A stretch of DNA of 64,000 nucleotides from a virus. The notes under the pieces were generated by a model that saw only the letters and a list, made by a program, of their open reading frames with translations, was not told where the DNA came from and ran no database searches. A program made the translations under genes and the position numbers. Where the stretch lies: the IMG/VR virus record IMGVR_UViG_3300027997_000002; one strand, written 5' to 3'. The first letter of the stretch is position 1, and each line of letters starts with the position of its first letter. This document shows, piece by piece, positions 39,316 to 64,000 of this stretch.

Positions 39316-39885
39316 ATGTTCCAGACTACTGCGCAGGTCGCCGGTGCTCGGTGGCCGCAACAAAAGCAATCTTTGACCGCGATGCGGGAGTCGAAAAGCG
39401 GCATGAAAAAGTCAAGCACTCTCAACGAGCTCAGCAAACCCCAGGTCATCGACCTCCTGCACCGGGTGCGCAGCAAGTCCAAGAACCTCAAGCAGAACGC
39501 ACAGAGGCTCACGAACCGGGTTCTAGGGGCGGCCATCGCGGCGGGCACCGGATACGGCCTCGGGTATTGGATGGGCGGCATGCGTCACGAGAAGGAAACC
39601 ATTCTCAAGACTGCAGGACTCGATCCAAACACGACGACCCCCGAGCAGGCTGACGCTGCTCTCGAGGCGGCCGGCGGAGATCCCACCCAGTGGTTCGGCG
39701 TTAACAAGGACATCGTGGTCGCGGTCGGTCTCACCGGCGTTGCGCTCACGGGCCTTGCGGGCGATGCCGACCGCTCGACGGTGGGCATGGTCGTCGAGCA
39801 CGCTGCGGCGGGCTCGCTGGGCGCGGCGTTCTACGGCGCCGGGCTCGACAAGGGCTACGACAGCTCGATTAGCGAAGCTGCCTAG
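39316..39885 (+). CDS. Major membrane/core protein candidate with three Gly/Ala hydrophobic helices
   Basis: Basic N-terminus then GAAIAAGTGYGLGY, VAVGLTGVALTG, AAGSLGAAFYGAG; first gene of operon. Confidence 0.65.
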   Translation: MFQTTAQVAGARWPQQKQSLTAMRESKSGMKKSSTLNELSKPQVIDLLHRVRSKSKNLKQNAQRLTNRVLGAAIAAGTGYGLGYWMGGMRHEKETILKTAGLDPNTTTPEQADAALEAAGGDPTQWFGVNKDIVVAVGLTGVALTGLAGDADRSTVGMVVEHAAAGSLGAAFYGAGLDKGYDSSISEAA

Positions 39886-40044
39886 CTGCGCGCACCAGGT
39901 CTTTGCTCAAGCGTCCGAGGAGTGCCCAACGGGTTCGCCCGTGTCCTTAGAGGATGAGAGGCCGAGGTGGTGACGCTGGTGAGCCGAGTTGGGGGCTCAG
40001 GATCCCGACGCTTCCGTCAAACGTCGAAACAAAAGGCAACGGCA

Positions 40045-40770
40045 ATGCAGAATCTGCAGAGCTACCAGAAGATCCACGCACGCATGAGCGAGCGTGTTTC
40101 AATCCACCGCGAGCTCGGCCAAGGGAACATCATTGGTGTTCACGGCGGTCGACACCTGTACCACGGGCGTACGTTCAACTCCCCCAAGGAGAAGGCAGCG
40201 TACCTCCAGTCGGCCACGCACGCGCGCATGGCCAAAAGTGGTGCCGGCCAGCGCAAGACCGGGCCGGTCGGCGCGGTCGCTCCGGGAAGCGGAAGTCCCG
40301 GTGAGGGTCCCCGTGCGCTCACGGGTCGGTACGATCTACCGCCCCAGGACTGCACGATCCACGGGATCGTGACGATCGGCGACTCGTCGATCGCAATCGG
40401 TGCGGACGGTCAGGTGACCGTTGGCTCCGGCAGCTGTCGCTGCATGACCACGAAGTTCATGCAGGCCGCTGCGTACCGTGCGTCGGACTCGGATGCAACC
40501 AACCTCATCGAGGACTGCTCTCCGTGCCCGGTGCTGCTGGTCAACTCGCGTAGCGGGGTGTTTCCGAACAAGCTCGATATCCTGATTGGTGCTGCGTTCA
40601 CCTTCACGGACATCGATCAGGCGCCGCTCAACTGCGCAAACTGGCACAGCTTCTCGTCGATCACGGGATGCCAGCTCACTTTGGACTGGCGAAACATCAT
40701 CGACGACGGTGCGATCCATGTCCTCATGAAGATGTACGTCATCTGTGAGGGCGGCTGCTGCGACTTCTAG
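40045..40770 (+). CDS. Capsid protein candidate: basic arm + single jelly-roll-like domain
   Basis: ~95-aa basic/Gly arm then ~145 aa of alternating beta strands ending LTLDWRN...IHVLMKMYV; upstream GTG 39967 possible. Confidence 0.5.
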   Translation: MQNLQSYQKIHARMSERVSIHRELGQGNIIGVHGGRHLYHGRTFNSPKEKAAYLQSATHARMAKSGAGQRKTGPVGAVAPGSGSPGEGPRALTGRYDLPPQDCTIHGIVTIGDSSIAIGADGQVTVGSGSCRCMTTKFMQAAAYRASDSDATNLIEDCSPCPVLLVNSRSGVFPNKLDILIGAAFTFTDIDQAPLNCANWHSFSSITGCQLTLDWRNIIDDGAIHVLMKMYVICEGGCCDF

Positions 40771-40822: not shown

Positions 40823-41701
40823 ATGAAGCCAGTCCCCGAAATCTTCCCAGGCGGCGCCAAGCACATGCCGGGCGACCCGCACAGCAAGCTCGGGGTCTCC
40901 AGGCAGTGCGCAAACGGGCAGGCGCGTCTCGTTTTCGCGCAGTACAACGCCGATCCGCTCTCGACTGGCACGTCGTCACCGGTGCCGCCGTTCAAGGTCG
41001 ATCAGATGATCAAGGCGGAGTACGTCGGCGAGGGCGAAAACATCCTGCCGTGGATCGTCAACCTGTGGGCATTCGAGGTCGAGCGCGTCGCCGGACTCGG
41101 CGCGCCGGTGAACCCCCTCGGGCTTTCGGAGATTCGGCGCGGCAGCATCTTCTCGCGCTACAAGGCGCGCGTCGAATGGGGCGGCGGAAACATTCGCGAC
41201 GTAGACTTCGGCCAATCGTTCCGCATTTCGACGCCGTCGCGGTTCATCACGGTGTCGACGTTGCTGCCGCCAAACAATGCGTCGTTCGTCAACCCGGAAC
41301 CCGGGAATCCGAATCAGCCGTCGCTCGCCGGCGTCGTCACCGACACGCTGTTTGGCGTCGAAGTCCAGCCAACGACGTCGCTCGTGGGGCGACCGGGCGC
41401 AACCCATACGCAGACGATCACGATCCCGCAGACCGTTGTCGACCAGTTCATCGCATTGCCGCCCGGCACCCGGAGCGTGTCGATCTATCAGACCGGGGTC
41501 GGTGATCCGATCACCGGTTTTTGGTCGCTCACGAGCACCCCGGCCGCGGTCGCGTTCAATCTCGGCTCCGTTGTCGTCAGCGGAGCCGACCTGCGTGCGC
41601 TCGATCTCATTCGCCCTGGCAATGCGGAGGGCATTGCAACCGGTCCGGCCGACATCGACGACGATCGCGTCATCACCGTTGTCTCTCACCTGGAGATCTG
41701 A
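40823..41701 (+). CDS. Capsid/vertex protein candidate with two beta-sandwich halves
   Basis: 292 aa, nearly all-beta pattern, RBS GGAG. Confidence 0.5.
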   Translation: MKPVPEIFPGGAKHMPGDPHSKLGVSRQCANGQARLVFAQYNADPLSTGTSSPVPPFKVDQMIKAEYVGEGENILPWIVNLWAFEVERVAGLGAPVNPLGLSEIRRGSIFSRYKARVEWGGGNIRDVDFGQSFRISTPSRFITVSTLLPPNNASFVNPEPGNPNQPSLAGVVTDTLFGVEVQPTTSLVGRPGATHTQTITIPQTVVDQFIALPPGTRSVSIYQTGVGDPITGFWSLTSTPAAVAFNLGSVVVSGADLRALDLIRPGNAEGIATGPADIDDDRVITVVSHLEI

Positions 41702-43809: not shown

Positions 43810-44877
43810 ATGGACCCCTTTGGCCTCGTACCGATCGGTGGATTTCTGCTCGCCGCGTGGCTCGGCCGCAAGCGTCGCAAGCGTCCGCGGGTCGTCTCCG
43901 ATCTGCCCGACGTCATCGAGGACTGTCCGCCGTTTCCGTGGCGCAGCGAGCTGGTCAACGAGGCCATCGAGGCCGCCCTCGCGGCCGAGGTTTGCGATCC
44001 CGAGGAGATGAGCGCACACGTGGCCGACTTCGTCTACCCGGTGTGGCCTGCGGGCGACGCGATCTCGTGGCCCAAGGCTGAGCCCTGGATCCTCGACGAG
44101 GGGATGCCCGACTCGGTGCTGTGCCTGTGGGAGCGTATTCGCCTGCGCGTACGGGCCAAGATCGCAACTCTCGAGGATGCGCTTTGCCCGAATCCAGGTC
44201 CGCGCGAAGGGATCGACTACGCCGAGCTCGCGGACGCGTGGGACTCCGGCGACGTCCCCCGCACAGCACGCTGGTACCAAGCGCATGCGCCCGGCGAGTC
44301 GTCGTGGACCGAGGTCGAGAGCATGGCCAATGTGGCCCGGGAGGCGCTCGCCGCCGCCCTCATCGAGGCCGGCCACGAAGCCGAGCTCGTCGACCAGGTC
44401 GACAAGAACGGGAGCCCATTTAGGGTGATCGCCATGATGAACGTCATCGAGTGCGCACCGATCAACGACGCACTCCTGGCGAGCCCCAAGTCCGAGCTCG
44501 GGACCAATCAAAACCCCGGCCTCGGCCACTGGGCGCCCCACAACCGAGGCATCTCGTTCAACCGCGTCCACGCCGACAACCGCGACCGCATGCGCAACGG
44601 GAACACGCCGCAGCGCGCGGTCACGAACGGCGGACGCGACAACGGACGCTACGCCGAGCACAACGGCCAAGGCGGCTTCCTGCCCACGATGTGGATCCCG
44701 CTGCTCGATCTCGAGCGCCTGGCAGCGTCGCCCAACGACATCGTTCCCCAGCGAAACGCATGGCCCAACGGTCTGAGCGGGAGCTGGCCACCGACCGAGT
44801 TCATCGAGCTCGGTACCCAAAATGTACCCGTCGGGTCCTGGGGCTGCGAGCCCGAGCGATCCGCACTGCCCGCGTAG
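43810..44877 (+). CDS. Single-pass virion membrane protein (extended WPP family)
   Basis: TM + RKRRKR; EDCPPFPW; YPVWP...SWP. Confidence 0.65.
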   Translation: MDPFGLVPIGGFLLAAWLGRKRRKRPRVVSDLPDVIEDCPPFPWRSELVNEAIEAALAAEVCDPEEMSAHVADFVYPVWPAGDAISWPKAEPWILDEGMPDSVLCLWERIRLRVRAKIATLEDALCPNPGPREGIDYAELADAWDSGDVPRTARWYQAHAPGESSWTEVESMANVAREALAAALIEAGHEAELVDQVDKNGSPFRVIAMMNVIECAPINDALLASPKSELGTNQNPGLGHWAPHNRGISFNRVHADNRDRMRNGNTPQRAVTNGGRDNGRYAEHNGQGGFLPTMWIPLLDLERLAASPNDIVPQRNAWPNGLSGSWPPTEFIELGTQNVPVGSWGCEPERSALPA

Positions 44878-45759: not shown

Positions 45760-46167
45760 ATGATCACCGTCGTTCAAACAGTCGCCGGCGCCTCCCAGTT
45801 CACTGGGCTGGCAGGTGCCGGTCTCATCGACTTCGCCGAGCTCGCGCTGGCCGGGGAGGGCGAGAGCGGCATCGTCTATAACCTTGCGCTCAAGTGGACC
45901 GACGGAGGCGCGGTCGCGGGGACGACGATCAACTGCTTCTTCCAGCGTCCTGGCGGCGGCCCGACCGAGCGGCTGCAGGTGACCACGAGAGGTCCTCTCG
46001 TCGACACGGCCGGCTTCGAGCTGGCGGGCTGTCGGATCATCGTGCCAAGGGAGTTTCCTGGGCTCGGGACGATCTGGCCCCTGCAGCTCATCACGACCGG
46101 CAAGACCGTCGACGCCAGCCTCATCATTAGCTTCGGGAAGGGACGAGTCGAGACAGGACCAGGCTGA
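45760..46167 (+). CDS. Small beta-sandwich (penton/jelly-roll-like) structural protein
   Basis: 135 aa, all-beta pattern. Confidence 0.5.
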   Translation: MITVVQTVAGASQFTGLAGAGLIDFAELALAGEGESGIVYNLALKWTDGGAVAGTTINCFFQRPGGGPTERLQVTTRGPLVDTAGFELAGCRIIVPREFPGLGTIWPLQLITTGKTVDASLIISFGKGRVETGPG

Positions 46168-46922
46168 TGCTTCGATTGACCAAACGACAGGAGGCCAGAC
46201 GGCGCCGCGACGAGCGCAAGCGTCGTGTGGCCCGTGGTGTTCCTGACGGCGAGCTTCGTCCGCATGCGGTGGAGTTTCGCTACCAGGGCCAAATGGTGGC
46301 GATGCTGACTGCCGGCATCAACGACCACATCACCGGTCAGATCATCGGCAAGAAGCGCTTCTACGAACTGGACCTGCTCGAGAGAATCCGTGCGCTCGGC
46401 ATCAAGGGGCTCTACGTCGACGTCGGCGCACACATCGGAAACCACTCGGTCTACTTCGCCAGGTACTGCCCCGCTACCCATGTCATCGCCGTCGAGGCCG
46501 ATCCGGAACTAGCAAAAATCTGCCAAGACAACCTGCAGGGATGCAGAGCGCATTGCGACACGACCTTTGAGACAGTTCCGTACGCCTGCTACGACGGGCT
46601 ACCGGTCAAGATCGTGCGTCACAAGATCAGGAACACTGGCATGCAGTCCGTGCAGACCGATTGGGACGGCCGTCCATCCAAAACACTAGCCGACATCCTT
46701 GGTGGCCGCGTACCCGCGGTCGTCAAGATCGACATCGAAGGCGGCGAGCCCGTCGTGCTCTGGGATGCGCTGCCGCTTCTGCGTGAGCACACGCCGCTCC
46801 TGGTCATCGAGTCGCGCACCGGTGCGGAATACAGTGACACCGAAGACAAGCTCCGCGAGCTGGGCTACCGGTCCGAGGGCCCCTACGCCTTGACCCCAAC
46901 CTACATCTGGAGGGCCGCATGA
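46167..46922 (+). CDS. FkbM-family O-methyltransferase
   Basis: YVDVGAHIGNHS, VEAD, VVKIDIEGGE. Confidence 0.85.
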   Translation: MLRLTKRQEARRRRDERKRRVARGVPDGELRPHAVEFRYQGQMVAMLTAGINDHITGQIIGKKRFYELDLLERIRALGIKGLYVDVGAHIGNHSVYFARYCPATHVIAVEADPELAKICQDNLQGCRAHCDTTFETVPYACYDGLPVKIVRHKIRNTGMQSVQTDWDGRPSKTLADILGGRVPAVVKIDIEGGEPVVLWDALPLLREHTPLLVIESRTGAEYSDTEDKLRELGYRSEGPYALTPTYIWRAA

Positions 46923-47656
46923 GCCTGCAGTTCTATCAAGACTACCGAGGCGACCTCGGCGACCTGCTCGAAGCCTGGAAGGCCAAGGAGCCGTTCGCAT
47001 TCACCCGCTTCGGCGACGGCGAGGCCGCGGTGCTCATCCGTCGCGAGCAGGCGGGCTATCCGCCGTTCATCGTCGAGCGCGCGAGCGAGCGCTGGCGCAG
47101 CGACCAGGTGCCCGAGAGCTTCCGCGAGCTGCTCGACCAGGCGCTGCGCTGCGATGCCGAGGGGTACTACCTCGGACTCCTGGGGCGCCGTGGACCAGAG
47201 GACCCGCACGCGATCTACTTGCACGAGAGCGCTGGCGTTCCCATGGAGCGGCGGACCTTCGCGGAGATCTTCTCCTACAACAACTACCACCGCATGCCTG
47301 TGCCGAAGCGGATGGCCAAGGACACGTGCATCGTCACGTCGAGCCCGATCCCCGACAACGAGGGGTACACGAGCTTGCTCATCCCAACCGAGGATGCGTA
47401 TGAGCTCGACCCCAAGGACACCGTCGAGGCACTGCTCGAAGTTGATCGGCCCATCTTGGTGGCGGCAGGACCACTCGCCAACGTGATCGTCCACCAGTAC
47501 TGGCTCGCCCAGACGCCGTCTCGCCGCCAGCCGATTATCGACATCGGCTCGGCGCTCGACCCGTGGATTCACGGCAGCATCACGCGCGGCTACCAGCACC
47601 CGAAAAACGCCCACCGCAAGCGCGAGTACGTCTGGCACTGGAAGGAGACCGCATGA
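46919..47656 (+). CDS. GT-D-fold (DUF1792-like) glycosyltransferase-related protein
   Basis: FAFTRFGDGE, LVAAGPLA, IIDIGSALD. Confidence 0.65.
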   Translation: MSLQFYQDYRGDLGDLLEAWKAKEPFAFTRFGDGEAAVLIRREQAGYPPFIVERASERWRSDQVPESFRELLDQALRCDAEGYYLGLLGRRGPEDPHAIYLHESAGVPMERRTFAEIFSYNNYHRMPVPKRMAKDTCIVTSSPIPDNEGYTSLLIPTEDAYELDPKDTVEALLEVDRPILVAAGPLANVIVHQYWLAQTPSRRQPIIDIGSALDPWIHGSITRGYQHPKNAHRKREYVWHWKETA

Positions 47657-49539: not shown

Positions 49540-50042
49540 TCTCGCCCTACTATAAGGAGTCCGATGCCACCCTCGAGGTCGATCTCGCCGACGTGGATCT
49601 TGGGGACGTGGAGATGGTCGATGCAATCCGGCAGCTTAGACACATTGCTAGGCTTCACCGGAACAAGCGCAACTGTCTACGCGAGCTCGCCACATGGCTA
49701 AAGGCGAGAAATAAGGTGGTCGACCCTGAGCCTGAGGCCGTCGACACTAGCGAGATGGATAAGGAGGGAGCCAAGGCAGCCGAGCGCGCTGCGATTGCAA
49801 GGCAGGCCGAGCGAGAGGCGGCCAGGGCTCTCCGAAAGGTTGCCCTTGAGGCAGCGGATGCGGACCGGATCAAGTCGGAGGGGGCCGAGCGCGTTGCGAT
49901 TGCGACCCAGGCCGAGCGAGAGGCGGCTGAGGCGGCGGCGAAAGCAGCGAACGACAAGGCCAGAGCTGCTGCCGCTGCGCTCGAAGAGAAGAAGGCCGAA
50001 GAGCGGCTCCGAGCTCGCGTCGGGAGGCCACGCGAGGAATGA
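49536..50042 (+). CDS. Ala/Glu/Arg coiled-coil protein
   Basis: AAERAAIA/AEREAA repeats. Confidence 0.6.
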   Translation: MISPYYKESDATLEVDLADVDLGDVEMVDAIRQLRHIARLHRNKRNCLRELATWLKARNKVVDPEPEAVDTSEMDKEGAKAAERAAIARQAEREAARALRKVALEAADADRIKSEGAERVAIATQAEREAAEAAAKAANDKARAAAAALEEKKAEERLRARVGRPREE

Positions 50043-54022: not shown

Positions 54023-54031
54023 GGAGCAGAC

Positions 54032-54820
54032 ATGAGCACCATCTCCACCATGATCCAGGGTTTGGCCCCGAAAGGACGGCGCCGTATGAACCCCACCAAG
54101 CAGCAGGCCGCGCTTCTGATCGCAGGAGGGGCCGCCATCGCGGCGTTCTTCCTGTTTGGTCGCAAGGCCAAGGCTGCAGGCGCTGCACCTCCGCTCATCG
54201 ACGACGATGAGACCGTCGACCCCGGTGAGCCCGACCCAGTCCCCAAGCCCGGGCCCAAGCCGCCGTCGATCAAGATCGACGTCGTGTGGGGGGACATCCA
54301 AGAGTCCATGAAGGGCAGCGAGGCGTCCAACGCCAGGCTGGTCTTCGCGACCCGCCCGGCGTCCCATAAGGGCCACAAGCGCAAGGATGGTCAGAACCTC
54401 AGCTCGTGGCTGACCAATGTGGCGTTTTGGATCACCTACCCGAACACGTTGGAGTGGCCGGGCGGCGGGATCCCCAACAAGCAAAACGTCCGGAACGACC
54501 AGCACGCGGACCGACAGCAGTACGCCGACGCCTGGGTCCGGGTCAACCAGGTCATCATGGGCCGGTTCGCGAAGTACCGCGACAAGATCTTCTTCAGCGT
54601 CAACCCGAACGCCCGCGTGGTCTCGATCGGGAAGAACGCCTGGACATGGATCGATACCATCCTGGTAGGGCCCAACGGCGCGACCGCCAATGCTGGCAGC
54701 GTCCTTATCGGGGCCTGGGAGAGCGAGTACCCGAACAAGGCGACTCCTGCGACCACCGCATGGTTCAAGGCCAAGAAGAAGATGATCGACCGGGCCATCG
54801 AGAAGGGATGGCCGCTCTAG
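54032..54820 (+). CDS. NP-motif single-pass virion membrane protein
   Basis: RRRMNPT + TM + Pro linker; YPNTLEWP. Confidence 0.7.
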   Translation: MSTISTMIQGLAPKGRRRMNPTKQQAALLIAGGAAIAAFFLFGRKAKAAGAAPPLIDDDETVDPGEPDPVPKPGPKPPSIKIDVVWGDIQESMKGSEASNARLVFATRPASHKGHKRKDGQNLSSWLTNVAFWITYPNTLEWPGGGIPNKQNVRNDQHADRQQYADAWVRVNQVIMGRFAKYRDKIFFSVNPNARVVSIGKNAWTWIDTILVGPNGATANAGSVLIGAWESEYPNKATPATTAWFKAKKKMIDRAIEKGWPL

Positions 54821-55147
54821 GTGGCCAAGCGCAGCGCCATCGTCTGCTTCAAGGAGCTCGAGGACGGGTCGTTTCAGGTCGTCGATGCGACGGGTACGAC
54901 CAGGCGATGCGGGAAGGACCCGTTCTCGGTGTGGCGCTGCGTACAGGAGATCCTCGACGACGCGACGTTGCCGAGGGTCGTCGAGCAGAAGGGACGCGAC
55001 CCCAGGAACAAGACGCCGCGGCAGGACGAGGATGCGATCAGGAAGATCGCCGACGCTGCGCTGGGAGAGATGGGGCCCGTCGGCAAGGCCGCGGCCCCGT
55101 TCATCATTGGGAAGATCCACGGACTGCTCCGCAAGGTCTCGCACTAG
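54821..55147 (+). CDS. Hypothetical protein
   Basis: TAG-GTG junction. Confidence 0.55.
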   Translation: MAKRSAIVCFKELEDGSFQVVDATGTTRRCGKDPFSVWRCVQEILDDATLPRVVEQKGRDPRNKTPRQDEDAIRKIADAALGEMGPVGKAAAPFIIGKIHGLLRKVSH

Positions 55148-55876
55148 ATGGCCAAGATGTCGCCACCCACCACGCTCATGCTGATGACCCTCGGGGCCAT
55201 CGGGGTGGGGGCGATCTATCAGCTGACGTCCACCAAGGCTCCTCCTGGTCGAATAGTCGCGCCGCCGCGAGGCAAGCTGACCCAGCTTGAAGGCAAGAAG
55301 CTGCTGATGGACATCGTGTCGAAGACGCCGGCCGACGCGGCGTGGTTCGAGTTCCTGGTCGCGCGGGCCTATCGGGAGTCCCGATGGTTCCCGACCGCAC
55401 ACAACGACGATCCCAGGGAGGTCGCCGCGAGCTCGCGAGCCTACGAGCGCAACCTGGAGCGCTACGTGGGCTGCCCGTGGGCCCCGTCGCGCTACAAGCT
55501 CGGCAGCGGCGGTTACCTTGGGATCATCCCGCCGAACGGTCTTGCTGCGTTTTGGGGCACGAAGTACGAGTGCATGGACCCGCGCATGGTCTTCGACCCC
55601 ATTGCCAACGTCGTCATGGGCCTGTTCTACGGCAAGCGCCTGATGGGGTGGTCCAACTTCAAGAAGAAGCCCACGTTCTTGAACCTGTGGTCGGGCTGGG
55701 GCAACCCATCGCGGATGGGCGAGGCCGAGCGCCTGGCCAACGTGCGGCCCTTCTTCGCAGACGCGCTCCAAAAGTCCGCGGAAGATCCCTCGCTCATCGA
55801 CGAGATCGTTCCATCCATCCCACTCCCGTCAAACGGAGCTGTTCTCTACGACCAGTTGCAGCAGTTGGTGGCGTGA
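55148..55876 (+). CDS. Membrane-anchored lysozyme-like (SLT-type) transglycosylase
   Basis: TM; AYRESRW (catalytic Glu), GGYLGII, FDPIANVVMG. Confidence 0.65.
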   Translation: MAKMSPPTTLMLMTLGAIGVGAIYQLTSTKAPPGRIVAPPRGKLTQLEGKKLLMDIVSKTPADAAWFEFLVARAYRESRWFPTAHNDDPREVAASSRAYERNLERYVGCPWAPSRYKLGSGGYLGIIPPNGLAAFWGTKYECMDPRMVFDPIANVVMGLFYGKRLMGWSNFKKKPTFLNLWSGWGNPSRMGEAERLANVRPFFADALQKSAEDPSLIDEIVPSIPLPSNGAVLYDQLQQLVA

Positions 55877-56784
55877 AGAAGATGCTCGCAGCAGCCCTCA
55901 CCCTTTGCTCTGCCGGATGCCCCGAGGCGCCGCAGAGCCAGGAGGGAAGTGTGCCCGTCTATCAGCTCGCGCTCCAGGTCGAAAAAAGGCGCGAGCCGAA
56001 GCCCGCGCCGATCGCTACTGGTATCACCGCGGACCCAGTTGCCAGTACTGTGACCCCTGACCCTACCACGGACTGGTCGACGGCGTGCATGGACCACACG
56101 AAGTCCCGGCCACGATTCCGCCGCAAGGAGCAGCGGCGCACCAAGCAGCTCCTACGCCACTTCCAACGCACGGTCGGCGCGAGCTCGGACATGTTCAAGC
56201 TCACGGCCTTGGCGGCCATGCGTGAGACGAGCATGCAGGGCTCGCAGTCGCGCTTCGACGGCCAGGGCGTCATCCATCGGCTCAACCCGGACGTCGAAGG
56301 TGCGTATCGGGCCTGGCGACGACTGGCCAAGCGCTACGCCGACAACCCGCACTATGACGACGTCGAGCTTTGGTACGGAGGCGCTGGCGTGTTCGGCATG
56401 AACCGCGCGCTTTGGCTCTCGGTGTTCGACAAGACTGCGAATCCCGCCGTCCTTTGCGACACGGTCGTCGACCTGGTCGTGCTCTACCGCGCGGCCTACT
56501 ACAAGCTCCGCAAGCTTCGCGGTCCGATCCGATGCAAGGGCGAGATGGTACGCGTGCGACCGACTTGGCGAAACCTGCACCGGGCGCTGTTCGCCGGGAA
56601 GCTTTGCCCGGCCAACGGTCCCAACGCCGAGTACTACCAGCGGGCCTTCGGTCGACGGGCAGCCCGCGTGGGGCTCGACCCCGACGCCGAGGTCGGTTTC
56701 AAGGACATCGGAAAGTCGCCGGGGGGCATGACTCGCTACGAGTTGGTCGACCATGTCTGGGAGACCTTTGAGGAGGCCGCATGA
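55873..56784 (+). CDS. Lipoprotein with lysozyme-like domain
   Basis: Lipobox-like LCSAGC; AMRETS (Glu), GAGVFGMN. Confidence 0.55.
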   Translation: MKKMLAAALTLCSAGCPEAPQSQEGSVPVYQLALQVEKRREPKPAPIATGITADPVASTVTPDPTTDWSTACMDHTKSRPRFRRKEQRRTKQLLRHFQRTVGASSDMFKLTALAAMRETSMQGSQSRFDGQGVIHRLNPDVEGAYRAWRRLAKRYADNPHYDDVELWYGGAGVFGMNRALWLSVFDKTANPAVLCDTVVDLVVLYRAAYYKLRKLRGPIRCKGEMVRVRPTWRNLHRALFAGKLCPANGPNAEYYQRAFGRRAARVGLDPDAEVGFKDIGKSPGGMTRYELVDHVWETFEEAA

Positions 56785-57170
56785 AACGCGAGACGCGAAT
56801 CCTGGGATACCTGGCCGCCGCAGCTGCGGGTGCCTTCTTTCTCCTTCGCAAGAAGAAGCCCGCGCCGGCGGTAACCGAGGATCTGGAGGAGGAGGTTCCG
56901 GATCCAGAAAAGGAACCAGGTGTCCACGGCAGCTATCGCAAATGGTTCTTCTCACTCCGTGAGCATCAGGTGGGCGAGTTCGCCGCCTGGGGCGTCTGGG
57001 TCGCCGACGTCCGGGCCCCTGCTCCCAACCCGTTCCTCTACCTGGCGACCGAGTCGATCCCCGAGGCGTGGTTTGTCGACAACGCCGGTACGGAGGGGGA
57101 GGCTAAGGACATCATGAAGGCGCACGTCGAAGCCCTACCTGTCGGGCTCAAGGAGGACATCCAGCCGTGA
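56781..57170 (+). CDS. Single-pass protein with beta3-alpha module
   Basis: TM + RKKK; ...AGTEGEAKDIMKAHVE. Confidence 0.65.
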   Translation: MKRETRILGYLAAAAAGAFFLLRKKKPAPAVTEDLEEEVPDPEKEPGVHGSYRKWFFSLREHQVGEFAAWGVWVADVRAPAPNPFLYLATESIPEAWFVDNAGTEGEAKDIMKAHVEALPVGLKEDIQP

Positions 57171-57370
57171 AGAAGCCCCCCATCGACCCCACGATCGCGA
57201 CCCTAGTCGGCGCGCTCTTCGGCGGCCTGGGAGTGTTCGGCGTGTTCACCCAGCTTGAGCTCGACGCGGACCAGGTCGCCATGCTGACCGGCTTCGCCGG
57301 CGCTGCGCTCACGGCAATCCGGACCCTTTGGCTGCGGCGAGCCTACAAGGCGGAGGGAGATGGTGGCTGA
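57167..57370 (+). CDS. Holin candidate (two TM, 67 aa)
   Basis: Two TMs, basic C-terminus, next to hydrolases. Confidence 0.5.
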   Translation: MKKPPIDPTIATLVGALFGGLGVFGVFTQLELDADQVAMLTGFAGAALTAIRTLWLRRAYKAEGDGG

Positions 57371-57872
57371 GAATGGCGATGCAGCAGTCACCCAGGAAGT
57401 TGGGATTGACGAGTTTCGCACTGCCACCCGCGAGCTTGGCAAGGCCGGCACCGCCATGCAGACGATCGCTGATGTCATGGCGAAGGAGGCCGAGGCCAAC
57501 GGAGACCGATCGTGGCTCGCCAAGAACCCAGGGGTCTTCATCACCGTCGTCGTCACCGTTTGCAGCGTGCTCATCGTGGGGTTCCAGTACTACTTCCAAA
57601 ACGAGCTCGAGCGCGGCCAGCGGGACTTCTACGAGACCAAGACCGCCCCCAAGGTCGAGGACATCGAGACCACCATCGAGATCCGTGGCCGCGAGGCCGC
57701 CCAAGAGCACGTCGACATCAACAAGCGAATCGACGCCGTCGGCGACCTCCAGATCGAACAGGGCAAAGACCACCGCAAGATCCTCAAGGACCTCGCGGAG
57801 AAGCAACGCATCCCAGTGGCAGGTAAGACCGAGGACCTCAAGGCCGCTGAGAGCAAGGTGATGGAAAAATGA
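57360..57872 (+). CDS. Single-pass coiled-coil protein
   Basis: WLAKNPG + TM + heptads. Confidence 0.6.
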   Translation: MVAENGDAAVTQEVGIDEFRTATRELGKAGTAMQTIADVMAKEAEANGDRSWLAKNPGVFITVVVTVCSVLIVGFQYYFQNELERGQRDFYETKTAPKVEDIETTIEIRGREAAQEHVDINKRIDAVGDLQIEQGKDHRKILKDLAEKQRIPVAGKTEDLKAAESKVMEK

Positions 57873-58762
57873 CCCCGATCGGAACCCACCTACGCAAACT
57901 TCGACGAAACCCCGTCGACCCAGCCTCGCTGCTGTTCATCGGGGGCGCTGCTTTCGTCCTATGGCTCATCGGTGGCAAGAAGAAGAAGCGGCGTCCGCCT
58001 GGCGTCATCACCGGCCCATGCGTACCGCCGAACTGCAAGATCCCACCGCCCAGCACGGGGCCGAGCGATCCGTTACCGCCGGGCTCAGGCGGCGGACACC
58101 TCCCCAAGGGCGGCGGCTATCGACCCCCGCCCGGCATGAAGACCAACGAGGTCTGGGTCTCGGATGACTGCCAGGCGTTCATCTACGGCAGCGAGTGGTT
58201 CCCGGTCGCAGGTGACAAGGACGCCTACCAGTGGTTCGTGGACTTCGTCCAGCGCGGTGATCCGGACTGGGGAGACTGGTGGAGCGAGTACTTCCAAAAG
58301 CGTGCGCTGGAGGAGGGTCTCGAGGGCACCGAGTTCGTCAAGGGTCTCAAGCTGTGGACCTGGCACGTCGAACCGGGCGACGCGATCTCGGGCTTCTTCC
58401 CCGGTCGCTTCGCGAGTTGGCCATCGGAGCCCGCTCCCAATATCCCACAGACGATACCGGAGCCCACCTTCGCGTTCGCCGAGGAGGTCCTCGCCGAGCT
58501 CGCGCCGCAGTGCGCCCCGCCGAGATGGCAGGACTACGAGGACTCGGACGAGTGGATTGCGGACTACACGGCCTGGCGACGCCAGTTCCCGCGCATGGCC
58601 CTGCTCTTCGACCAGGCGATGGCCCTCGGCGCCGAGGGTCCGCTACCGGTCGGTCAAAACCTCAGCCTTGCAACCAACGAGACGTACGAAGGCGTACGCA
58701 ACATGTGGAATGCCCACATCGATCAGGTGGGCGCTACCAAGGGTCACATCGAGATCGTGTAG
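57869..58762 (+). CDS. NP-motif single-pass virion membrane protein
   Basis: RKLRRNPVD + TM + KKKKRR + Pro linker + VSDDCQAF; LAPQCAPP. Confidence 0.7.
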   Translation: MTPIGTHLRKLRRNPVDPASLLFIGGAAFVLWLIGGKKKKRRPPGVITGPCVPPNCKIPPPSTGPSDPLPPGSGGGHLPKGGGYRPPPGMKTNEVWVSDDCQAFIYGSEWFPVAGDKDAYQWFVDFVQRGDPDWGDWWSEYFQKRALEEGLEGTEFVKGLKLWTWHVEPGDAISGFFPGRFASWPSEPAPNIPQTIPEPTFAFAEEVLAELAPQCAPPRWQDYEDSDEWIADYTAWRRQFPRMALLFDQAMALGAEGPLPVGQNLSLATNETYEGVRNMWNAHIDQVGATKGHIEIV

Positions 58763-58774
58763 GAGACCAACGAC

Positions 58775-59158
58775 ATGAAAGCCATCAATCTTCGTCGCCT
58801 CAACAAGAACCCCGACGGTCGCCTCTACGCGCTCGCGCTCCTGGCCGCTGCCGGTGCCGGGGTCTACTACTTCACCCGCAAGAAGAAGGTGACACCACCA
58901 GGGGTCCCGGCCGACGAAAAGCTCCCAGACAAGGGGCCCCAAACGGGCGAAAGGGTCACGGTCGACAGCGCCGGAGTGGGCGAGTTCTGCAACTGGGTCC
59001 TCTACCAGCAGGGCAACATGTTCGGCTTCGATGCCATCACCACCGCCGGCGAGGTCCCCGAGCCCTTCAACTCGGGGCCGATCTATCCGTCCGAGCAGGT
59101 GGCACGCGAGGCCGTCGCCAAGCACGTCGCCGACTGGACGGCGGATGGGAAGTGCTGA
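58775..59158 (+). CDS. NP-motif single-pass protein with beta3-alpha module
   Basis: RRLNKNPDG + TM + RKKK; YPSEQVAREAVAKHV. Confidence 0.7.
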   Translation: MKAINLRRLNKNPDGRLYALALLAAAGAGVYYFTRKKKVTPPGVPADEKLPDKGPQTGERVTVDSAGVGEFCNWVLYQQGNMFGFDAITTAGEVPEPFNSGPIYPSEQVAREAVAKHVADWTADGKC

Positions 59159-59162
59159 TCGA

Positions 59163-59549
59163 GTGAACCGACTGCGCCAGCTCGTCTCTGCCGCGTTCCT
59201 GACGTTCACCGTCGGTTTCTTCATCTGTGGTTGCAAGCCCACGGTCCCAGGTGCGCTCGACGGCGCCAACAAGGCCCTCGTCGGGGTCGACATCGCGCTC
59301 GAAGAGGCAGCGAAGGCGTGGGCCGCTGCCGTCGACGCGAAGATCGCCCTGTGTCGGGCCAAGAACCTGCCGACACCGAAGGCTCGGGAGGACTGCCTGG
59401 GCATCTTCGCCCGCGGCAAGGAGGTCGAGCCCCAACTCGAGCTCGCGTCCAAGTCGTACGACCAGATCGTCGAGGGCCTGCGCCAGCTCGCGGAGGCCTA
59501 CGGTGCGCTGCGGCCTTACATCGAGGCTGCGAAGGAGGCCAAGCAGTGA
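59163..59549 (+). CDS. Helical lipoprotein (spanin-like?)
   Basis: Signal ending FICGC; amphipathic helices. Confidence 0.55.
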   Translation: MNRLRQLVSAAFLTFTVGFFICGCKPTVPGALDGANKALVGVDIALEEAAKAWAAAVDAKIALCRAKNLPTPKAREDCLGIFARGKEVEPQLELASKSYDQIVEGLRQLAEAYGALRPYIEAAKEAKQ

Positions 59550-59752
59550 GCACATTCATGCAGGTGTGGAAGAACCGGGGCGTGCTGCTTGAGCTGCTCG
59601 ACATCCTCAAGAAGCTCGCCGCGGGCGCGAAGACCATCGCCGAGATGCGTAATCGCATCGCCCAGGGCGCCCACCGAGGGGACCTCGACGACGTGCTAAA
59701 ACGGTTTGCCAGCGCCAACGAAAGGGCGCGAGACTTCGTCAACAACGGCTGA
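59546..59752 (+). CDS. Small helical protein
   Basis: GTGA overlap, RBS AAGGAGG. Confidence 0.55.
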   Translation: MSTFMQVWKNRGVLLELLDILKKLAAGAKTIAEMRNRIAQGAHRGDLDDVLKRFASANERARDFVNNG

Positions 59753-59764
59753 AAGGAAAAAGCA

Positions 59765-59983
59765 ATGAACCTCCCTTGCGCCTGTAAACAAGGACACCCC
59801 GGTCACAACCCGCAGCACCAGCAGCCCCAGGGCCGCGTCGGGCGCCACAGGGCCGGCCCGAAGAACGCGGGTCCCCCCGGCGTTGTGCCCAGGTGCCCGG
59901 TCGGCCAGACCCGCGGCGCCGACGGTCGGTGCCGTCCAGCGCCATCAATGGCGAACCCTGGCACCCCCCGTTCGAGGTACTAG
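59765..59983 (+). CDS. Small basic Cys peptide
   Basis: CAC; CPVGQTRGADGRC; MANPG. Confidence 0.5.
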   Translation: MNLPCACKQGHPGHNPQHQQPQGRVGRHRAGPKNAGPPGVVPRCPVGQTRGADGRCRPAPSMANPGTPRSRY

Positions 59984-59986
59984 ACC

Positions 59987-60394
59987 ATGGCCAAAGAAAG
60001 CCGCCTCAGGTGGATCGCTGAGATCGCAGCCGCCAGCGTGATCGGTGCGCTGGCGGTCCGGGCCATGGACAAGTACTTCTCCAAGAAGACCGAGCAACAG
60101 GCGCTGCCCGCCGAGCCTCAGCAAAACCCAGCGATGGTCGCCGGTCAGCAGCCAACGCAGCAGTTCCTGGTCGCGCCGCCGGTTCCACCGCCGGTGCCCA
60201 TGCCGGTACCGTTCCCGGTCTACACCCAGGCTCCGCAAATGATGCAACCTCAGCAACCAAACTTCCCGCAAGTTCCCCAGTTCCCGCGGCTCAACCCGGA
60301 GGAGGAGGAGCCCGAGCTCGAAGAGGTCGTCGAGGAGATCGACCCCGTCGACGAGATCGAGCGGGAGTGGGAGGAGAATGGCTGGGACGCATAA
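59987..60394 (+). CDS. TM + Pro/Gln-rich + acidic tail protein
   Basis: Low-complexity PQ tract, EEEE tail. Confidence 0.6.
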   Translation: MAKESRLRWIAEIAAASVIGALAVRAMDKYFSKKTEQQALPAEPQQNPAMVAGQQPTQQFLVAPPVPPPVPMPVPFPVYTQAPQMMQPQQPNFPQVPQFPRLNPEEEEPELEEVVEEIDPVDEIEREWEENGWDA

Positions 60395-61091
60395 CCCCAC
60401 CGGCTACGTCGCCTCCACGCGCGAGATGGACCTCGACGACGCGCCGCGCTACCTGAACGACGCGGGCAAGCTCGTATGGCTCAACGCCTACGAGTCCGCC
60501 GAGCGGGCCTACGGCGATCTGCGGTGGGCGAAGCCGCACGACGTGGCCGACTACGTGGCCTCGGGGTGGCGCAACATGCCCGCGGCTGGGAAGGGCAAGG
60601 TCGAGCTCCCGTGGCAAGGGGCGACCACCTACCTCGGGACCATGCTCGAGGTCCACTATGCGCTCACCGAGGGCCAGGTGTTCGTGCAGAGCTTCGGCCG
60701 TAGCCCGCCGGCGCTTTTGTGGAGCGCATCGCAAAAGGAGGACCGCGCGGGCGGCTCGGTCTACGCCTACCCGGGCCTCAAGATCCCGACGCCGAGCCTC
60801 AACGCCTACGAGGCCCCAAAGGCGGCGCGGGTCTACACCCAGTGGCGCGACGGCAACGAGCGACCCCGAGGAGCGAGTGAGGTCGACTTCCCGGTGCCGA
60901 ACGTGAGCGCGGCCAAGCCCGCCATTGCGGTCGTGTACCGATCCGACAAGTTCTCGCCCGGCAAGAAGATCGACTACATCCACCACTTCGACAAGGGCGT
61001 GCGCGTACGACTGGGTCCGGGCAAGATTCCGAACGCTGTGTACATCACGGGCGGTCGGCTGCGGCTGACCGAGAGGGGACTCGAGCGCTGA
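60378..61091 (+). CDS. Putative virion core protein
   Basis: THNP start; C-terminal VVYRSDKF...YIHHF...ITGGRLRLTERG. Confidence 0.65.
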   Translation: MAGTHNPTGYVASTREMDLDDAPRYLNDAGKLVWLNAYESAERAYGDLRWAKPHDVADYVASGWRNMPAAGKGKVELPWQGATTYLGTMLEVHYALTEGQVFVQSFGRSPPALLWSASQKEDRAGGSVYAYPGLKIPTPSLNAYEAPKAARVYTQWRDGNERPRGASEVDFPVPNVSAAKPAIAVVYRSDKFSPGKKIDYIHHFDKGVRVRLGPGKIPNAVYITGGRLRLTERGLER

Positions 61092-61783
61092 TGGCCAAGA
61101 AAACAACACTCTCAGCTGCCCAGCGAGCCGCCCTGGCGAAGGGCCGTGCCAAGCTGGCCAAGAGAGGCAAGAAGAAAGCGTCCAAGGAAGGGCCACGGAC
61201 GGCCCTGAAGGACGTCCGATACCGCGGCTACACCATTTTCCCTATCGTCGGCACGACCAGCCCGGGACGTCGCTTCTACGAGGCTGACATTACCAAAGGC
61301 AACACGAGCGTGGACTTCGTGACCGGCTCAACTCGGGCGATCGTGCTTCGCCGAGCTCGTCGCACGATCGACAAATACTTCATCAAAGGCGTTCCTCATC
61401 GGAAGGTCAAGCGAGGGAAGAAAAAGGTCGTCAAAGTCTCCTACGCAACGCGAGCTCGGCTTCTCAAGGCGCGCGGGGGCAAGAAGAACCGCCGTGCCAG
61501 GACGGCCCACCTGGGTGCGGCGGTCGCAACGGCAGTGGCGAACCCGAGCACTCCACGGCGCGCCAAGAAGAAGGGCAAGAAGAACCGATCGGCTCGTCTG
61601 GGCGCAGCAGCCAAGCCGTCGCGCGCGAGACGGCAGCGACCCGGGGAAGGGTTCGCTTACCTGGTCCAGGTCCAGGACTCCAACTCGAAGAAGAGGACCC
61701 GTAAAAATCCCGAGGTCGATACCGGCACCGCAAGCCCAGCTCGCGCGAAGCAGATCGCGGCGGCGTTCCTCAGGAGCGTATGA
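61091..61783 (+). CDS. Highly basic DNA-condensing/core protein with NP motifs
   Basis: LSAAQRAALAKGRAK, K/R-rich, VANP and RKNP, ends IAAAFLRSV. Confidence 0.7.
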   Translation: MAKKTTLSAAQRAALAKGRAKLAKRGKKKASKEGPRTALKDVRYRGYTIFPIVGTTSPGRRFYEADITKGNTSVDFVTGSTRAIVLRRARRTIDKYFIKGVPHRKVKRGKKKVVKVSYATRARLLKARGGKKNRRARTAHLGAAVATAVANPSTPRRAKKKGKKNRSARLGAAAKPSRARRQRPGEGFAYLVQVQDSNSKKRTRKNPEVDTGTASPARAKQIAAAFLRSV

Positions 61784-62485
61784 ATGCCCCAGAAGAAGAA
61801 GAAGCGCCATAGCTATTCGGCCGAGATCTTCTACAGGCGAAAGCGCAGCAAGCCGGGAAAGTTCATCGCGAAGATGTCCCGCGACGCACGCGAGGCCGGG
61901 AAACCGTTCCGAGCGCCGCATCAAACGGTTTCGCGCAGGGGGATGTACGGTCCGCCATTCCACGGTGAGGTTGGGAAGGCGGACGGTGGCATCTTACTCC
62001 TCGACGACCTTCAGGACTGGTCACCCGTAGTCCTCAGGGGCATCCGCGAGTTCATCGAGGACAACGGCCTGACTGTGCGGATTGTTGCGATCGTCGACCT
62101 GGATGCCACCGATGAGATGACCGGCAAGACTAGGACGAACACCCAAGAGAGGCTCAAGAAGATCGAGAAGATCTTCTGGCCCTCATTGGGGCCACCGGAG
62201 GAGGAGAAGACCGCCGCCCCCAAGAAGAAGAAGGTCCCGGTGCTCCCCTGGCCCCGCCGCAGCACGGTCGACATCGAGCGACTCCCGGGCCGCAAGTTCG
62301 GCTCCTGCCTGCGATGTGCAATCTGCATCGCCTACGATGTCAATCGAGGCTGCTGCACCGTATGCGGTCGACCGCTCTCGGCCAACGCCAAGAAGAAGTC
62401 CAAGAACCCGGCCAAGCATAACCCCAAGCACAAGCTCGCGCGCCAGCGCCGTATTGCAAGCTCGTTCCTGCGCAGCATTCGATGA
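61784..62485 (+). CDS. Basic protein containing a ComM/YifB-like AAA+ fragment, Cys cluster and NP motifs
   Basis: PFRAPHQTVS...GEVGKADGGILLLDDL...LRGIREFIEDNG; no Walker A; ends IASSFLRSIR. Confidence 0.7.
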   Translation: MPQKKKKRHSYSAEIFYRRKRSKPGKFIAKMSRDAREAGKPFRAPHQTVSRRGMYGPPFHGEVGKADGGILLLDDLQDWSPVVLRGIREFIEDNGLTVRIVAIVDLDATDEMTGKTRTNTQERLKKIEKIFWPSLGPPEEEKTAAPKKKKVPVLPWPRRSTVDIERLPGRKFGSCLRCAICIAYDVNRGCCTVCGRPLSANAKKKSKNPAKHNPKHKLARQRRIASSFLRSIR

Positions 62486-64000
62486 AGTACCGGTACAAGG
62501 GCTACGAGATCGAGATCCTGCGTCGTGAGACCGGGAGCCACGAGTACGTCCTGAGCAAGAAGGGGCGTCGACTCGAGCGCGCGCACGCGTCAGCCTTCCC
62601 GGGCTACACGGCCGAGCAGGCCCTGGCCGCGGCGAAGCGGCGCGTCGACAAGAAGACGGCCAAGAAGAAGAAGCCCGCGACCCAAAGGCGGCTGCCGAAG
62701 ATGGAGGTCTTCGACGTCGAGGCGGTCGAGCTCGCCATCAAGAAGCTCCCGCTTCGAATGCGGGTGAAGATCTTCCCGGCCGCGCGCAAGCTCGCGGACC
62801 GGCTCGAGCAGCCGCCAGTCATCGTGCGCCGCGAGATGGAGAAGCTCGACCTGGTCGAGCCCATGGGCCAGGGCTTTTGGGGCCTGAGCAAGCTCGGGAC
62901 CCGCTACTACGTCATACACCGCCAAAGGCTGGAGGAGGCCCTGGCCAAGGACCTCGGCTTCGAGCTGGAGAAGAAGCAGAGGCCCAACAAGAAGAAGAAC
63001 CCGATCCGCAAGAAGGGCGTGTTCCCGAAGTACCTCCTTCAGGCCGGCTACGACACGGTGTGGAACTACCGCGGGTGGACCATCGGGATCACCCAGCGCA
63101 GCAACACCGAGTGGGCGTGGAAGGGCAGACACCCAACCCTCAAGGTTGGGCCTATCATGGCCCGTGGGCAGCGCATCATCATGGACAAGCACGCCTACCT
63201 GGGCGAGCTCACGGGTCCGACGGGTGAGACCGAGCAAGACGCGCTTTGGATCGCCAAGTACTGGGTCGACAAGTACGAGTTGTTCTGGGCCATGTGGCAC
63301 AAAAACCGCGACGACGCCGAGAAGCTCATGACGGCGATCGGTATGCTTGAAAACACCGCCGATAAGCTAGTCCTCCGGAAAAAGCTATCGCGAGCCAATC
63401 TTGCGCGAGAGTGGCAGAGGCTCAACCCCAAACAGTCTGGCCTGTCTTCAAAGGGGGCGATCGCTTGGCAGTACTTCGAGACGCTGCCGAGCAAGGAGCG
63501 TCTGGGGATCATGGATGAGGTCAACGAATACACGAAGCGCGCGAGCTGGTGGGAGATCCTGCCCACCGCGGAGCAACGACGTCGTGGGGGCGGGCAGGCC
63601 AACCCCAAGGGCAAGAGACGCCCAAACACGATGCTCACCAAGGAGAAGGCGAAGTATCTGATGCGGTCAGGTGGCCGGCGCGTGTGGCAGTACGGCAAAG
63701 ACTGGGAGTTTCACACGTTCAAGGATTCACCCGTCGAATGGGAGGCGGAGGTCGTCGGTAGCGATCCCCGCAAACCGGGACTCGGACACACGGCCGGCAA
63801 GACCGAGCAGGATGCGCTAGCGACGGCCAAGTACCGAGTCGATCAGGAAGCCTTCCTCCACAAGATCAAGCCTGCGACGAGACGGATGCGGTTACGCGAG
63901 ATCATCATCATCCTCGAGCAGCTGGCCAATGATCGCGCCAGCGCGGACGAGACGCCTCGACGTTCCGATGTAGCACGCGAGCTCCAGACCAGAATGACAG
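62482..64000 (+). CDS. Modular basic protein >506 aa with three beta3-alpha repeats and NP linkers (runs off the window, not in ORF track)
   Basis: Hand translation from ATG 62482 is open to the end; TAEQALAAAKRRVD, TEQDALWIAKYWVD, TEQDALATAKYRVD; KKNP, RLNP, QANP. Confidence 0.8.
   Translation, partial: MKYRYKGYEIEILRRETGSHEYVLSKKGRRLERAHASAFPGYTAEQALAAAKRRVDKKTAKKKKPATQRRLPKMEVFDVEAVELAIKKLPLRMRVKIFPAARKLADRLEQPPVIVRREMEKLDLVEPMGQGFWGLSKLGTRYYVIHRQRLEEALAKDLGFELEKKQRPNKKKNPIRKKGVFPKYLLQAGYDTVWNYRGWTIGITQRSNTEWAWKGRHPTLKVGPIMARGQRIIMDKHAYLGELTGPTGETEQDALWIAKYWVDKYELFWAMWHKNRDDAEKLMTAIGMLENTADKLVLRKKLSRANLAREWQRLNPKQSGLSSKGAIAWQYFETLPSKERLGIMDEVNEYTKRASWWEILPTAEQRRRGGGQANPKGKRRPNTMLTKEKAKYLMRSGGRRVWQYGKDWEFHTFKDSPVEWEAEVVGSDPRKPGLGHTAGKTEQDALATAKYRVDQEAFLHKIKPATRRMRLREIIIILEQLANDRASADETPRRSDVARELQTRMT

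Follow-up and report, generated by a model that had tools for sequence, protein, structure and literature searches.

To our knowledge, SSIP-1 (~44 kb) is the largest cultured tailless, membrane-containing bacterial virus. Published prokaryotic viruses with a double jelly-roll (DJR) capsid protein have genomes of 7–18 kb (PMC5894146), and a limited literature search revealed no publication on bacterial DJR viruses of 65–85 kb. Because of these modest sizes, large DJR genomes such as those of adenoviruses and giant viruses have been deemed a eukaryotic speciality. Here we analyze the IMG/VR record IMGVR_UViG_3300027997_000002, a DNA stretch of 64,000 nucleotides (nt) that we call the window. We favor, with a probability of about 0.6, the interpretation that it belongs to an uncultured temperate marine bacterial virus of an undescribed family, whose particle is tailless, icosahedral, and of the PRD1/STIV type. 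The virus is probably tailless and membrane-lined, because hallmark genes of tailed phages are absent and the late operon opens with a predicted DJR capsid protein, and it would exceed published bacterial viruses of such build four- to fivefold in size. An initial annotation had already proposed a large jelly-roll lineage; its list of known genome sizes omitted SSIP-1.

The double jelly-roll capsid candidate

The candidate major capsid protein (MCP) is 292 amino acids (aa) long. An exhaustive HMMER search of 1.84 billion representatives, for which the query was a read-through of this gene and the one that follows it, returned ~45 homologues of the 292-aa protein and ~35 of the neighboring 169-aa protein; a word-indexed search found just one homologue of the former. 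With an alignment of 47 sequences, AlphaFold2 (AF2) produced a confident all-beta model (pLDDT 86.1, pTM 0.82) in which a disordered N terminus is followed by two jelly-roll domains (residues ~28–185 and ~189–292). Two vertical eight-stranded jelly rolls in a single chain, the feature by which DJR-capsid viruses (kingdom Bamfordvirae, realm Varidnaviria) are recognized, are therefore present in the model. The corresponding ESM Atlas model is poor (pLDDT 0.46).

When the AF2 model was compared with PDB and BFVD entries by Foldseek, viral DJR capsid proteins held the top ranks, above cellular DJR families, with probabilities of up to 0.99 for STIV and tectivirus GC1. When 48,161 PDB representatives were compared exhaustively with the model, both domains were aligned only in PRD1 P3, the STIV MCP, and DUF2961/GH172 proteins, all of which count among the known DJR families (PMC8812541). 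Shape searches of the Atlas and AFDB with the same model gave nothing telling. The initial annotation had named three beta-sandwich candidates, starting at 40045, 40823, and 45760, to be compared with single jelly-roll (SJR) and DJR capsids. This prediction holds for the latter two, whose AF2 models are both jelly rolls: the protein at 40823–41701 has two, matching DJR capsids and their cellular DJR relatives, and that at 45760–46167 has one.

The 292-aa protein is also predicted to self-associate. A three-copy prediction reached a score of 0.50, compared with 0.00 for the best control. Among proteins of known structure, 20 of 30 solved as pairs of one chain attain this score, compared with 1 of 23 solved as single chains. 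The runs have at least 62% of their contacts in common, and the pLDDT of the partner does not fall below 77.

Gene order was compared in four further relatives (L017, L019/L020, L022, and L023/L024), and it is common to all of them. A divergent gene for an acidic protein of ~390 aa precedes a late operon that starts with a Gly-zipper protein, one or two copies of a 241-aa-type protein, the DJR protein, and an enzyme with a Cys-His-Asp triad; a membrane-anchored protein of ~300 aa and a 135-aa jelly roll lie further downstream. Family members reside on contigs of 75.6, 77.0, 66.7, 64.3, 55.3, and 37.5 kb. As judged from these sequences, they form a diverse marine family with a conserved jelly-roll module. 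Relatives of the capsid protein, of a 237-aa protein, and of P0085 were not found in IMG/VR, nor do relatives occur among the 185,579 species genomes of GTDB. The Myxococcota host suggested by the initial annotation has no support in any of our results.

The same structural matches could be explained if the 292-aa protein were a cellular-type DJR enzyme or lectin (DUF2961/GH172, PNGase F, or PHM-like) acting on glycans. The element would then still be a virus or a virus-like mobile element, with a particle that is pleomorphic, vesicle-like, or made of the 241-aa protein. PHM is indeed among the Foldseek matches, a large glycan-modification cluster lies 4.5 kb downstream, the many membrane proteins would fit an enveloped or pleomorphic particle as well, and a packaging ATPase has not been assigned. 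However, viral capsids outrank the cellular DJR families in both PDB and BFVD, and no member of the capsid family matches DUF2961 or any other Pfam family. The gene has a fixed place near a single jelly roll and the Cys-His-Asp enzyme where the late operon starts; the glycan genes, by contrast, vary between relatives, and self-association of the protein is predicted. We therefore regard an enzyme or lectin as an improbable identity for this protein.

Genome extent, hallmark genes, and the candidate packaging ATPase

The window has a G+C content of 62–71% (64% for the genome) and contains no tRNA genes. It originates from a seawater metagenome, and identical sequence is present in runs of three seawater studies and in ENA, JGI, and Logan assemblies. 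Exact-protein matches recovered flanking DNA of 3,237 nt on the right and 6,022 nt on the left (together ~9.3 kb), giving a composite of 73,259 nt. Because the cluster of the capsid candidate includes a contig of 75,628 nt, and because a Logan contig reaches at least 8.66 kb left of the window (at least 2.8 kb past the recovered flank), the genome is at least 76 kb long and not closed; the window represents most of it. At its left extremity, the Logan contig breaks off within a late-strand gene that encodes at least 334 aa. No overlap was found when the two ends of the composite were compared, and neither the leftmost known sequence, used as a DNA pattern, nor a protein of the 77-kb relative had a match in JGI metagenome contigs.

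Four contigs from three independent assemblies (two ENA and one JGI) end at one identical base on the right, 47 nt past the last gene (L001 15408–15454) and ~3.2 kb right of the window. A G+C-rich hairpin immediately precedes this position. The shared end could be a physical genome end, or it could mark a point of attachment or variation.

Among ~130 open reading frames (ORFs) scanned over the 73.3 kb, terminase, portal, HK97 capsid, and tail families had no PHROG or Pfam match, with the exception of the HerA/FtsK-type ATPase discussed below. PHROG matches of the 42 late proteins (39.4–67.2 kb) were limited to a methyltransferase, a sulfotransferase, and two weak hits to families of unknown function, and precomputed Pfam matches of the late genes to Methyltransf_21, GT2, a faint Sulfotransfer_2, and Mg_chelatase. 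Hallmark families were likewise missing from the early proteins of large and middle size and from another 44 ORFs, which include those of the flanks. We judge the PHROG scan to be working, since it at once recognized TerS, TerL, portal, protease, HK97 capsid, and adaptor genes in an unrelated locus (L018). The absence of a terminase, portal, HK97 capsid, and tail module that the initial annotation had noted is thus borne out and extends to 73.3 kb; the flanks it had proposed to search (3.2 kb on the right and 6.0 kb on the left) yielded no terminase, portal, or HK97 capsid gene. Hallmark-free flanks and jelly-roll folds for both modeled candidates are the two points on which its proposal of a large jelly-roll lineage with tailed-phage-like accessory genes depended, and the proposal is supported accordingly.

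A tailed phage (Caudoviricetes) could present the same picture if its head and tail genes were located in the unassembled part of the genome. The 28-kb late block would then be accessory and encode envelope-directed, lysis, and internal proteins, and the two-jelly-roll protein would be a receptor-binding, decoration, or enzymatic protein, a role that is consistent with the tail receptor-binding proteins among its BFVD matches. There is some room for such genes: The genome is incomplete, its right ends coincide in three assemblies, and its left side runs into the late-strand gene mentioned above. Furthermore, genomes of more than 76 kb may exist in this group, given that an ATPase relative with 81% identity is encoded on a contig of 84.0 kb. 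The early genes resemble those usual in temperate tailed phages, and a full-length homologue of the HerA-like ATPase is likewise found next to integrases in a tailed phage. However, 73.3 kb of this genome lacks every one of the 10–20 structural families that PHROGs usually recognize, and family contigs top out at 55–77 kb, so that a head-and-tail module, which would take up at least 16 kb, could hardly be accommodated. Every relative has the jelly-roll module as a conserved block at the start of its late operon. Moreover, the relatives tried are absent from IMG/VR, which fits an absence of the hallmarks that virus finders use. Given the 73 kb without hallmarks, the contig maximum near 77 kb, and the fixed position of the module, we consider a tailed phage unlikely, even if it is the least improbable of the alternatives.

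The FtsK/HerA superfamily is the ATPase type expected of DJR viruses. The initial annotation had seen no packaging enzyme and missed the 573-aa member of this superfamily in the early region. The protein matches phrog_2666, which is labeled "terminase large subunit" (3e-17), and weakly matches Pfam TrwB_AAD_bind; the nearest PDB sequences are HerA proteins of defense systems. A Walker A scan of the 73.3 kb identified this ATPase and the UvrD helicase as the only P-loop NTPases. It is thus the only candidate packaging motor seen, and it is not specific to this virus family. A full-length homologue with 37% identity lies next to integrases in L018 (an IMG/VR contig; 9962–11740), a tailed phage that itself encodes TerS, TerL, portal, protease, and HK97 capsid. 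The ATPase family has at least 983 full-length members of ~570 aa, which are unnamed and occur in mobile elements, including the tailed temperate phage; they also include proteins of metagenome-assembled genomes (Acidobacteriaceae and Binataceae) and lie on contigs of up to 205 kb.

We considered whether the ATPase proves the presence of a PRD1-type motor and rejected this argument, given the homologue beside TerS, TerL, and portal genes in L018 and a family of this size. For the same reasons, the protein is counted neither for nor against any capsid type. The flanks had also been suggested as a place to find an A32/P9-like packaging ATPase or a terminase; the outcome is a single HerA/FtsK ATPase, which is located in the window and may serve in packaging, and no terminase in the flanks.

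The early gene set points to a phage-like element. A tyrosine integrase and a phage zinc-binding protein are encoded on the left, and the middle part encodes DpdA (phrog_1279, 6e-61), a Mom-like protein, DNA methyltransferases that include a C5 enzyme, and AlkB-like repair proteins. Replication genes comprise a RepB-type primase and a UvrD helicase; no polymerase family, including protein-primed family B, was matched in any Pfam or PHROG scan. By its sequence matches, this set is typical of temperate phages. A pooled scan of early ORFs also returned an M23-peptidase/endolysin-like PHROG match that the initial annotation had overlooked. The ORF at 15084–15728 is 66% identical over 98 residues to a gene of a relative annotated as Peptidase_M23, and because of this alignment it is the most likely source of the PHROG endolysin and peptidase matches.

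Several of these genes would also suit a nonviral integrative or conjugative plasmid-like element, in which the ATPase, the RepB-type primase, the membrane proteins, and the wall-degrading enzyme serve DNA transfer. The ATPase weakly matches the Pfam families TrwB_AAD_bind, FtsK_SpoIIIE, and Zot, homologues of its domain occur on 79 plasmid records, and both the primase and many membrane proteins are present. However, no relaxase or type IV secretion family appeared among the matches of any Pfam or PHROG scan, and DpdA, the Mom-like protein, and other PHROG families are phage-typical. Most of the 79 plasmid records are typed as non-mobilizable, and the one examined resembles a phage-plasmid. 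Together with a jelly-roll module that matches viral capsids, these observations make a conjugative element very improbable.

Some observations weigh against the interpretation of a tailless DJR virus. Searches at the sequence level connected the capsid family with no known capsid family in Pfam, the PDB, or phages: None of its 47 members has a credible Pfam match (a stray DUF6622 hit has an E-value of 0.013), a profile search of PDB sequences with the family retrieved no capsid protein, and tblastn of the candidate against 50,697 phage records returned nothing. The confident contacts in the three-copy prediction run from C-terminal roll to C-terminal roll (residues 233–267 against 194–289), which is not obviously the ring of the pseudo-hexagonal DJR trimer. 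Among the early genes, at a distance of 37 kb from the capsid gene, lies the sole FtsK/HerA ATPase, which belongs to a protein family not specific to these viruses. The left arm of the incomplete genome is unrecovered, and a hallmark gene could still lie there. Finally, we infer both the internal membrane and the lack of a tail.

Gene inventory and a proposed working

The features on which the preferred reading draws are collected in Table 1.

Table 1. Location of genes and gene groups in the window (position 1 is its first nucleotide)
Feature	Coordinates	Strand	Basis
HerA/FtsK-superfamily ATPase, 573 aa	1685–3406	+	Pfam DUF87 2e-13; FtsK_SpoIIIE, Zot
508-aa protein (7862–9388) with internal hydrophobic stretches and C-terminal membrane anchor; 142-aa and 157-aa genes	7862–10296	+	
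Acidic, helical protein, ~400 aa	37978–39213	-	Divergent to late operon, conserved position
Small hydrophobic Gly-zipper-type protein, 160 aa, first late-operon gene	39403–39885	+	Pfam Gly-zipper_Omp weak, E-value 0.011
241-aa protein with conserved Cys-rich C-terminal domain (~140 aa)	40045–40770	+	Synteny
Predicted DJR major capsid candidate, 292 aa	40823–41701	+	AF2 model, Foldseek, synteny
Cys-rich transglutaminase-like (Cys-His-Asp) enzyme, 169 aa	41705–42214	+	Conserved triad, weak Pfam
355-aa protein, N-terminal membrane anchor followed by Lys/Arg cluster	43810–44877	+	Conserved family core
Single jelly-roll protein, 135 aa	45760–46167	+	AF2 model, 20 homologues
Glycan-modification cluster around Gly-rich fiber-like protein	46167–52526	+	Pfam, PHROG
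FkbM-type methyltransferase	46167–46922	+	Pfam Methyltransf_21, PHROG methyltransferase
GT-D-like protein	46919–47656	+	Weak GT-D match
Gly-rich fiber-like protein, 628 aa	47653–49539	+	No family match
GT2 glycosyltransferase	50468–51979	+	Pfam GT2
Sulfotransferase-like protein	51942–52526	+	PHROG sulfotransferase, faint Pfam Sulfotransfer_2
~15 small or mid-size late proteins, mostly with a single hydrophobic segment ahead of a Lys/Arg cluster	52743–60394	+	
Six very basic proteins, first three in the window	61091–64000, on to ~67,190 (L001 10699–15407)	+	BLAST paralogy

Several neighbors of the capsid gene keep their positions across the family. This is true for the Gly-zipper protein in L019, L022, and L023. 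Homologues of the 241-aa protein directly precede the capsid gene in L017, L019 (two copies), L022, and L023 (two copies); the tandem pairs lie at L019 8670–10001 and L023 897–2433. The protein matches neither Pfam nor PHROG families, hhalign does not relate it to the capsid family, and its ESM Atlas model is poor (pLDDT 0.35). We regard it as a candidate minor capsid or vertex protein.

The gene for the 169-aa enzyme lies directly 3′ of the capsid gene in all relatives. The initial annotation had proposed a protease at this position. In agreement with an enzymatic role, C90, H129, and D141 are nearly invariant in 35 homologues, and five of these have a weak match to Pfam Transglut_core (best E-value 0.0023). 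From these residues, the protein is a candidate maturation protease or cross-linker.

The 355-aa protein has homologues in L022 and L023 and no Pfam or PHROG match. For the 135-aa protein, AF2 gives a single eight-stranded jelly roll (pLDDT 83.5). Its best structural matches are generic, as the fold is common, and include phage cement and turret proteins, SJR capsids, polyomavirus VP1, and nucleoplasmin; hhalign detects no relation between its family and the capsid family. The model makes it a candidate vertex (penton) or cement protein.

The divergently transcribed acidic protein retains its place in L019, L022 (388 aa), and L024 and has no Pfam or PHROG match; it may be a scaffold or assembly protein. 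Homologues of the 508-, 142-, and 157-aa proteins (41%, 34%, and 37% identity) adjoin the 388-aa gene and the late operon in L019. This gene group lacks a Walker A motif as well as any Pfam, PHROG, or PDB match, and the ESM Atlas model of the 508-aa protein is poor (pLDDT 0.32).

Membrane proteins are abundant in the late region. Under a strict rule, which requires a charge-free hydrophobic segment in a hydropathy scan, 12 of the 42 late proteins are single-pass membrane proteins, and a looser reading gives ~16–18. The segment is mostly followed by a Lys/Arg (K/R) cluster. The initial annotation was therefore correct about the kind of protein and too high in its count of about 20. No protein of the 52743–60394 block has a Pfam or PHROG match. 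An all-against-all BLAST of the late proteins revealed that five of them (53468–54022, 54032–54820, 56781–57170, 57869–58762, and 58775–59158) share a paralogous N-terminal anchor, in which a basic-x-Asn-Pro motif leads into a hydrophobic segment and then a poly-Lys/Arg run, although they are unrelated in their C-terminal domains.

Two proteins of this block, encoded at 55148–55876 and 55882–56784, had been read as membrane-anchored muramidases from an E-S-like motif seen by eye. We rejected this assignment because it has no support in Pfam, PHROG, or PDB sequences. A 67-aa membrane protein and a 170-aa coiled-coil membrane protein are encoded at 57167–57872, and a 134-aa protein with a lipobox-like Cys at 59145–59549. 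Read by eye, these lipobox and coiled-coil membrane proteins near 57–59.5 kb could form a holin/spanin-like lysis set, which, if so, would suit a diderm host.

The composition of the glycan genes differs between relatives. In L022, for example, a gene for an 836-aa protein is followed by a methyltransferase, a GT2 enzyme 38% identical to that of the window, and sugar-biosynthesis genes. Two spikes had been predicted; we recognize one such candidate, the Gly-rich, fiber-like protein of 628 aa.

The six basic proteins at the right end of the late region contain 21–42% K+R, are built from paralogous modules, and have a common C-terminal motif, R(Q/K)xxIAxxFLxxV, which looks like a targeting or processing signal. 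The last of them (356 aa) is Lys/Ala-rich and histone-H1-like, with 42% K+R. A basic 233-aa protein encoded at 61784–62485 has a precomputed Pfam match to Mg_chelatase (AAA+ lid-like) and lacks a Walker A motif. We infer that the six are candidate DNA-condensing or core proteins.

If the tailless DJR interpretation is correct, the virion could be assembled as follows. Trimers of the 292-aa protein would form the shell, and the 135-aa single jelly roll would occupy the vertices or act as cement. About 16 K/R-flanked single-pass late proteins and the anchored 508-aa protein would reside in an internal lipid membrane, which, as in PRD1 and PM2, may be taken from the cytoplasmic membrane of the host. 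The methyl-, glycosyl-, and sulfotransferases would decorate the Gly-rich 628-aa fiber, the basic proteins would compact the DNA or travel with it, and processing or cross-linking of virion proteins would fall to the Cys-His-Asp enzyme.

A more far-reaching version of this proposal is possible, and we advance it tentatively, at somewhat less than even odds. According to this version, an undescribed family of temperate tailless DJR viruses of marine bacteria, with genomes of ~65–85 kb, independently gained a complexity known otherwise from eukaryotic DJR viruses alone. This complexity would comprise a capsid-linked cysteine-type enzyme, histone-like core proteins with a shared C-terminal signal, a glycosylated fiber along with dedicated enzymes for its glycans, and ~16 membrane proteins. 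DNA packaging might proceed without a dedicated A32/P9-type ATPase.

Comparison with described viruses and elements

If our interpretation holds, a marine family with genomes of 65–85 kb would indicate that the DJR architecture scales up in bacteria too. Present virus-detection pipelines would overlook such viruses, as the relatives tried are not in IMG/VR. The candidate core proteins, the capsid-linked cysteine enzyme, and the membrane proteome would have arisen independently here, and the genome would offer a concrete gene set for studying how ~76 kb of DNA is packaged into a membrane-lined capsid.

Caudoviricetes have an HK97-fold capsid protein, a portal, and a large terminase, whereas none of these has a PHROG or Pfam match here in 73.3 kb of an incomplete genome, in scans that address sequence families rather than divergent folds. 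The cellular DJR proteins of the DUF2961/GH172 type (4kq7, 7v1v, and 8ah3) differ in that no member of the capsid family matches Pfam DUF2961. In addition, the context of the gene here is viral, whereas DUF2961 genes reportedly lack an association with proviruses (PMC8812541). The Helvetiavirae (Sphaerolipoviridae, Matshushitaviridae, and Simuloviridae) have two adjacent single jelly-roll capsid genes next to an ATPase gene. Here, the model of the 292-aa protein has both rolls in one chain, the neighboring gene encodes the 241-aa protein, and the ATPase gene is not adjacent.

SSIP-1 resembles the virus proposed here as a tailless bacterial virus with an internal membrane. SSIP-1 is almost an orphan in sequence, and two capsid protein types have been reported for it (PMC6356626). 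It differs from the present virus in these two capsid types, and the genome described here is nearly twice as large. STIV (Turriviridae), which stands for the "STIV group" of prokaryotic DJR elements, is archaeal and has a 17-kb genome; no sequence relation to it was found, and a B204-type ATPase was not identified here.

The morphogenetic module of adenoviruses and polintons consists of a DJR capsid protein, a penton, a cysteine protease, and basic core proteins. Our locus offers an analogy only, in that a DJR capsid candidate, a single jelly roll, a capsid-adjacent cysteine-type enzyme, and very basic proteins occur together. The enzyme is transglutaminase-like rather than of the adenain/Ulp1 type, the basic proteins are unrelated, and the host is bacterial.

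Among the Tectiviridae (PRD1, PR772, GC1, and Wip1; Bamfordvirae), genomes are linear, ~15 kb long, and bounded by inverted terminal repeats, whereas the genome described here is at least 76 kb. A protein-primed family B polymerase, as tectiviruses have, was not found in it, and a RepB-type primase, a UvrD helicase, and an integrase are present instead. The capsid candidate has no similarity to P3 in Pfam, in the PDB profile search, or by tblastn, and a small P9-type ATPase is not adjacent to its gene. The glycan cluster, the Cys-His-Asp enzyme, and the basic proteins of this virus are absent from tectiviruses. Nevertheless, there are points of likeness: The capsid candidate has full-length structural matches that include the P3 proteins of PRD1 and PR772 and the capsids of GC1 and Wip1. 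Moreover, both kinds of virus combine a small single jelly roll of the size of the penton protein P31 with many small late membrane proteins and a gene set free of tail genes.

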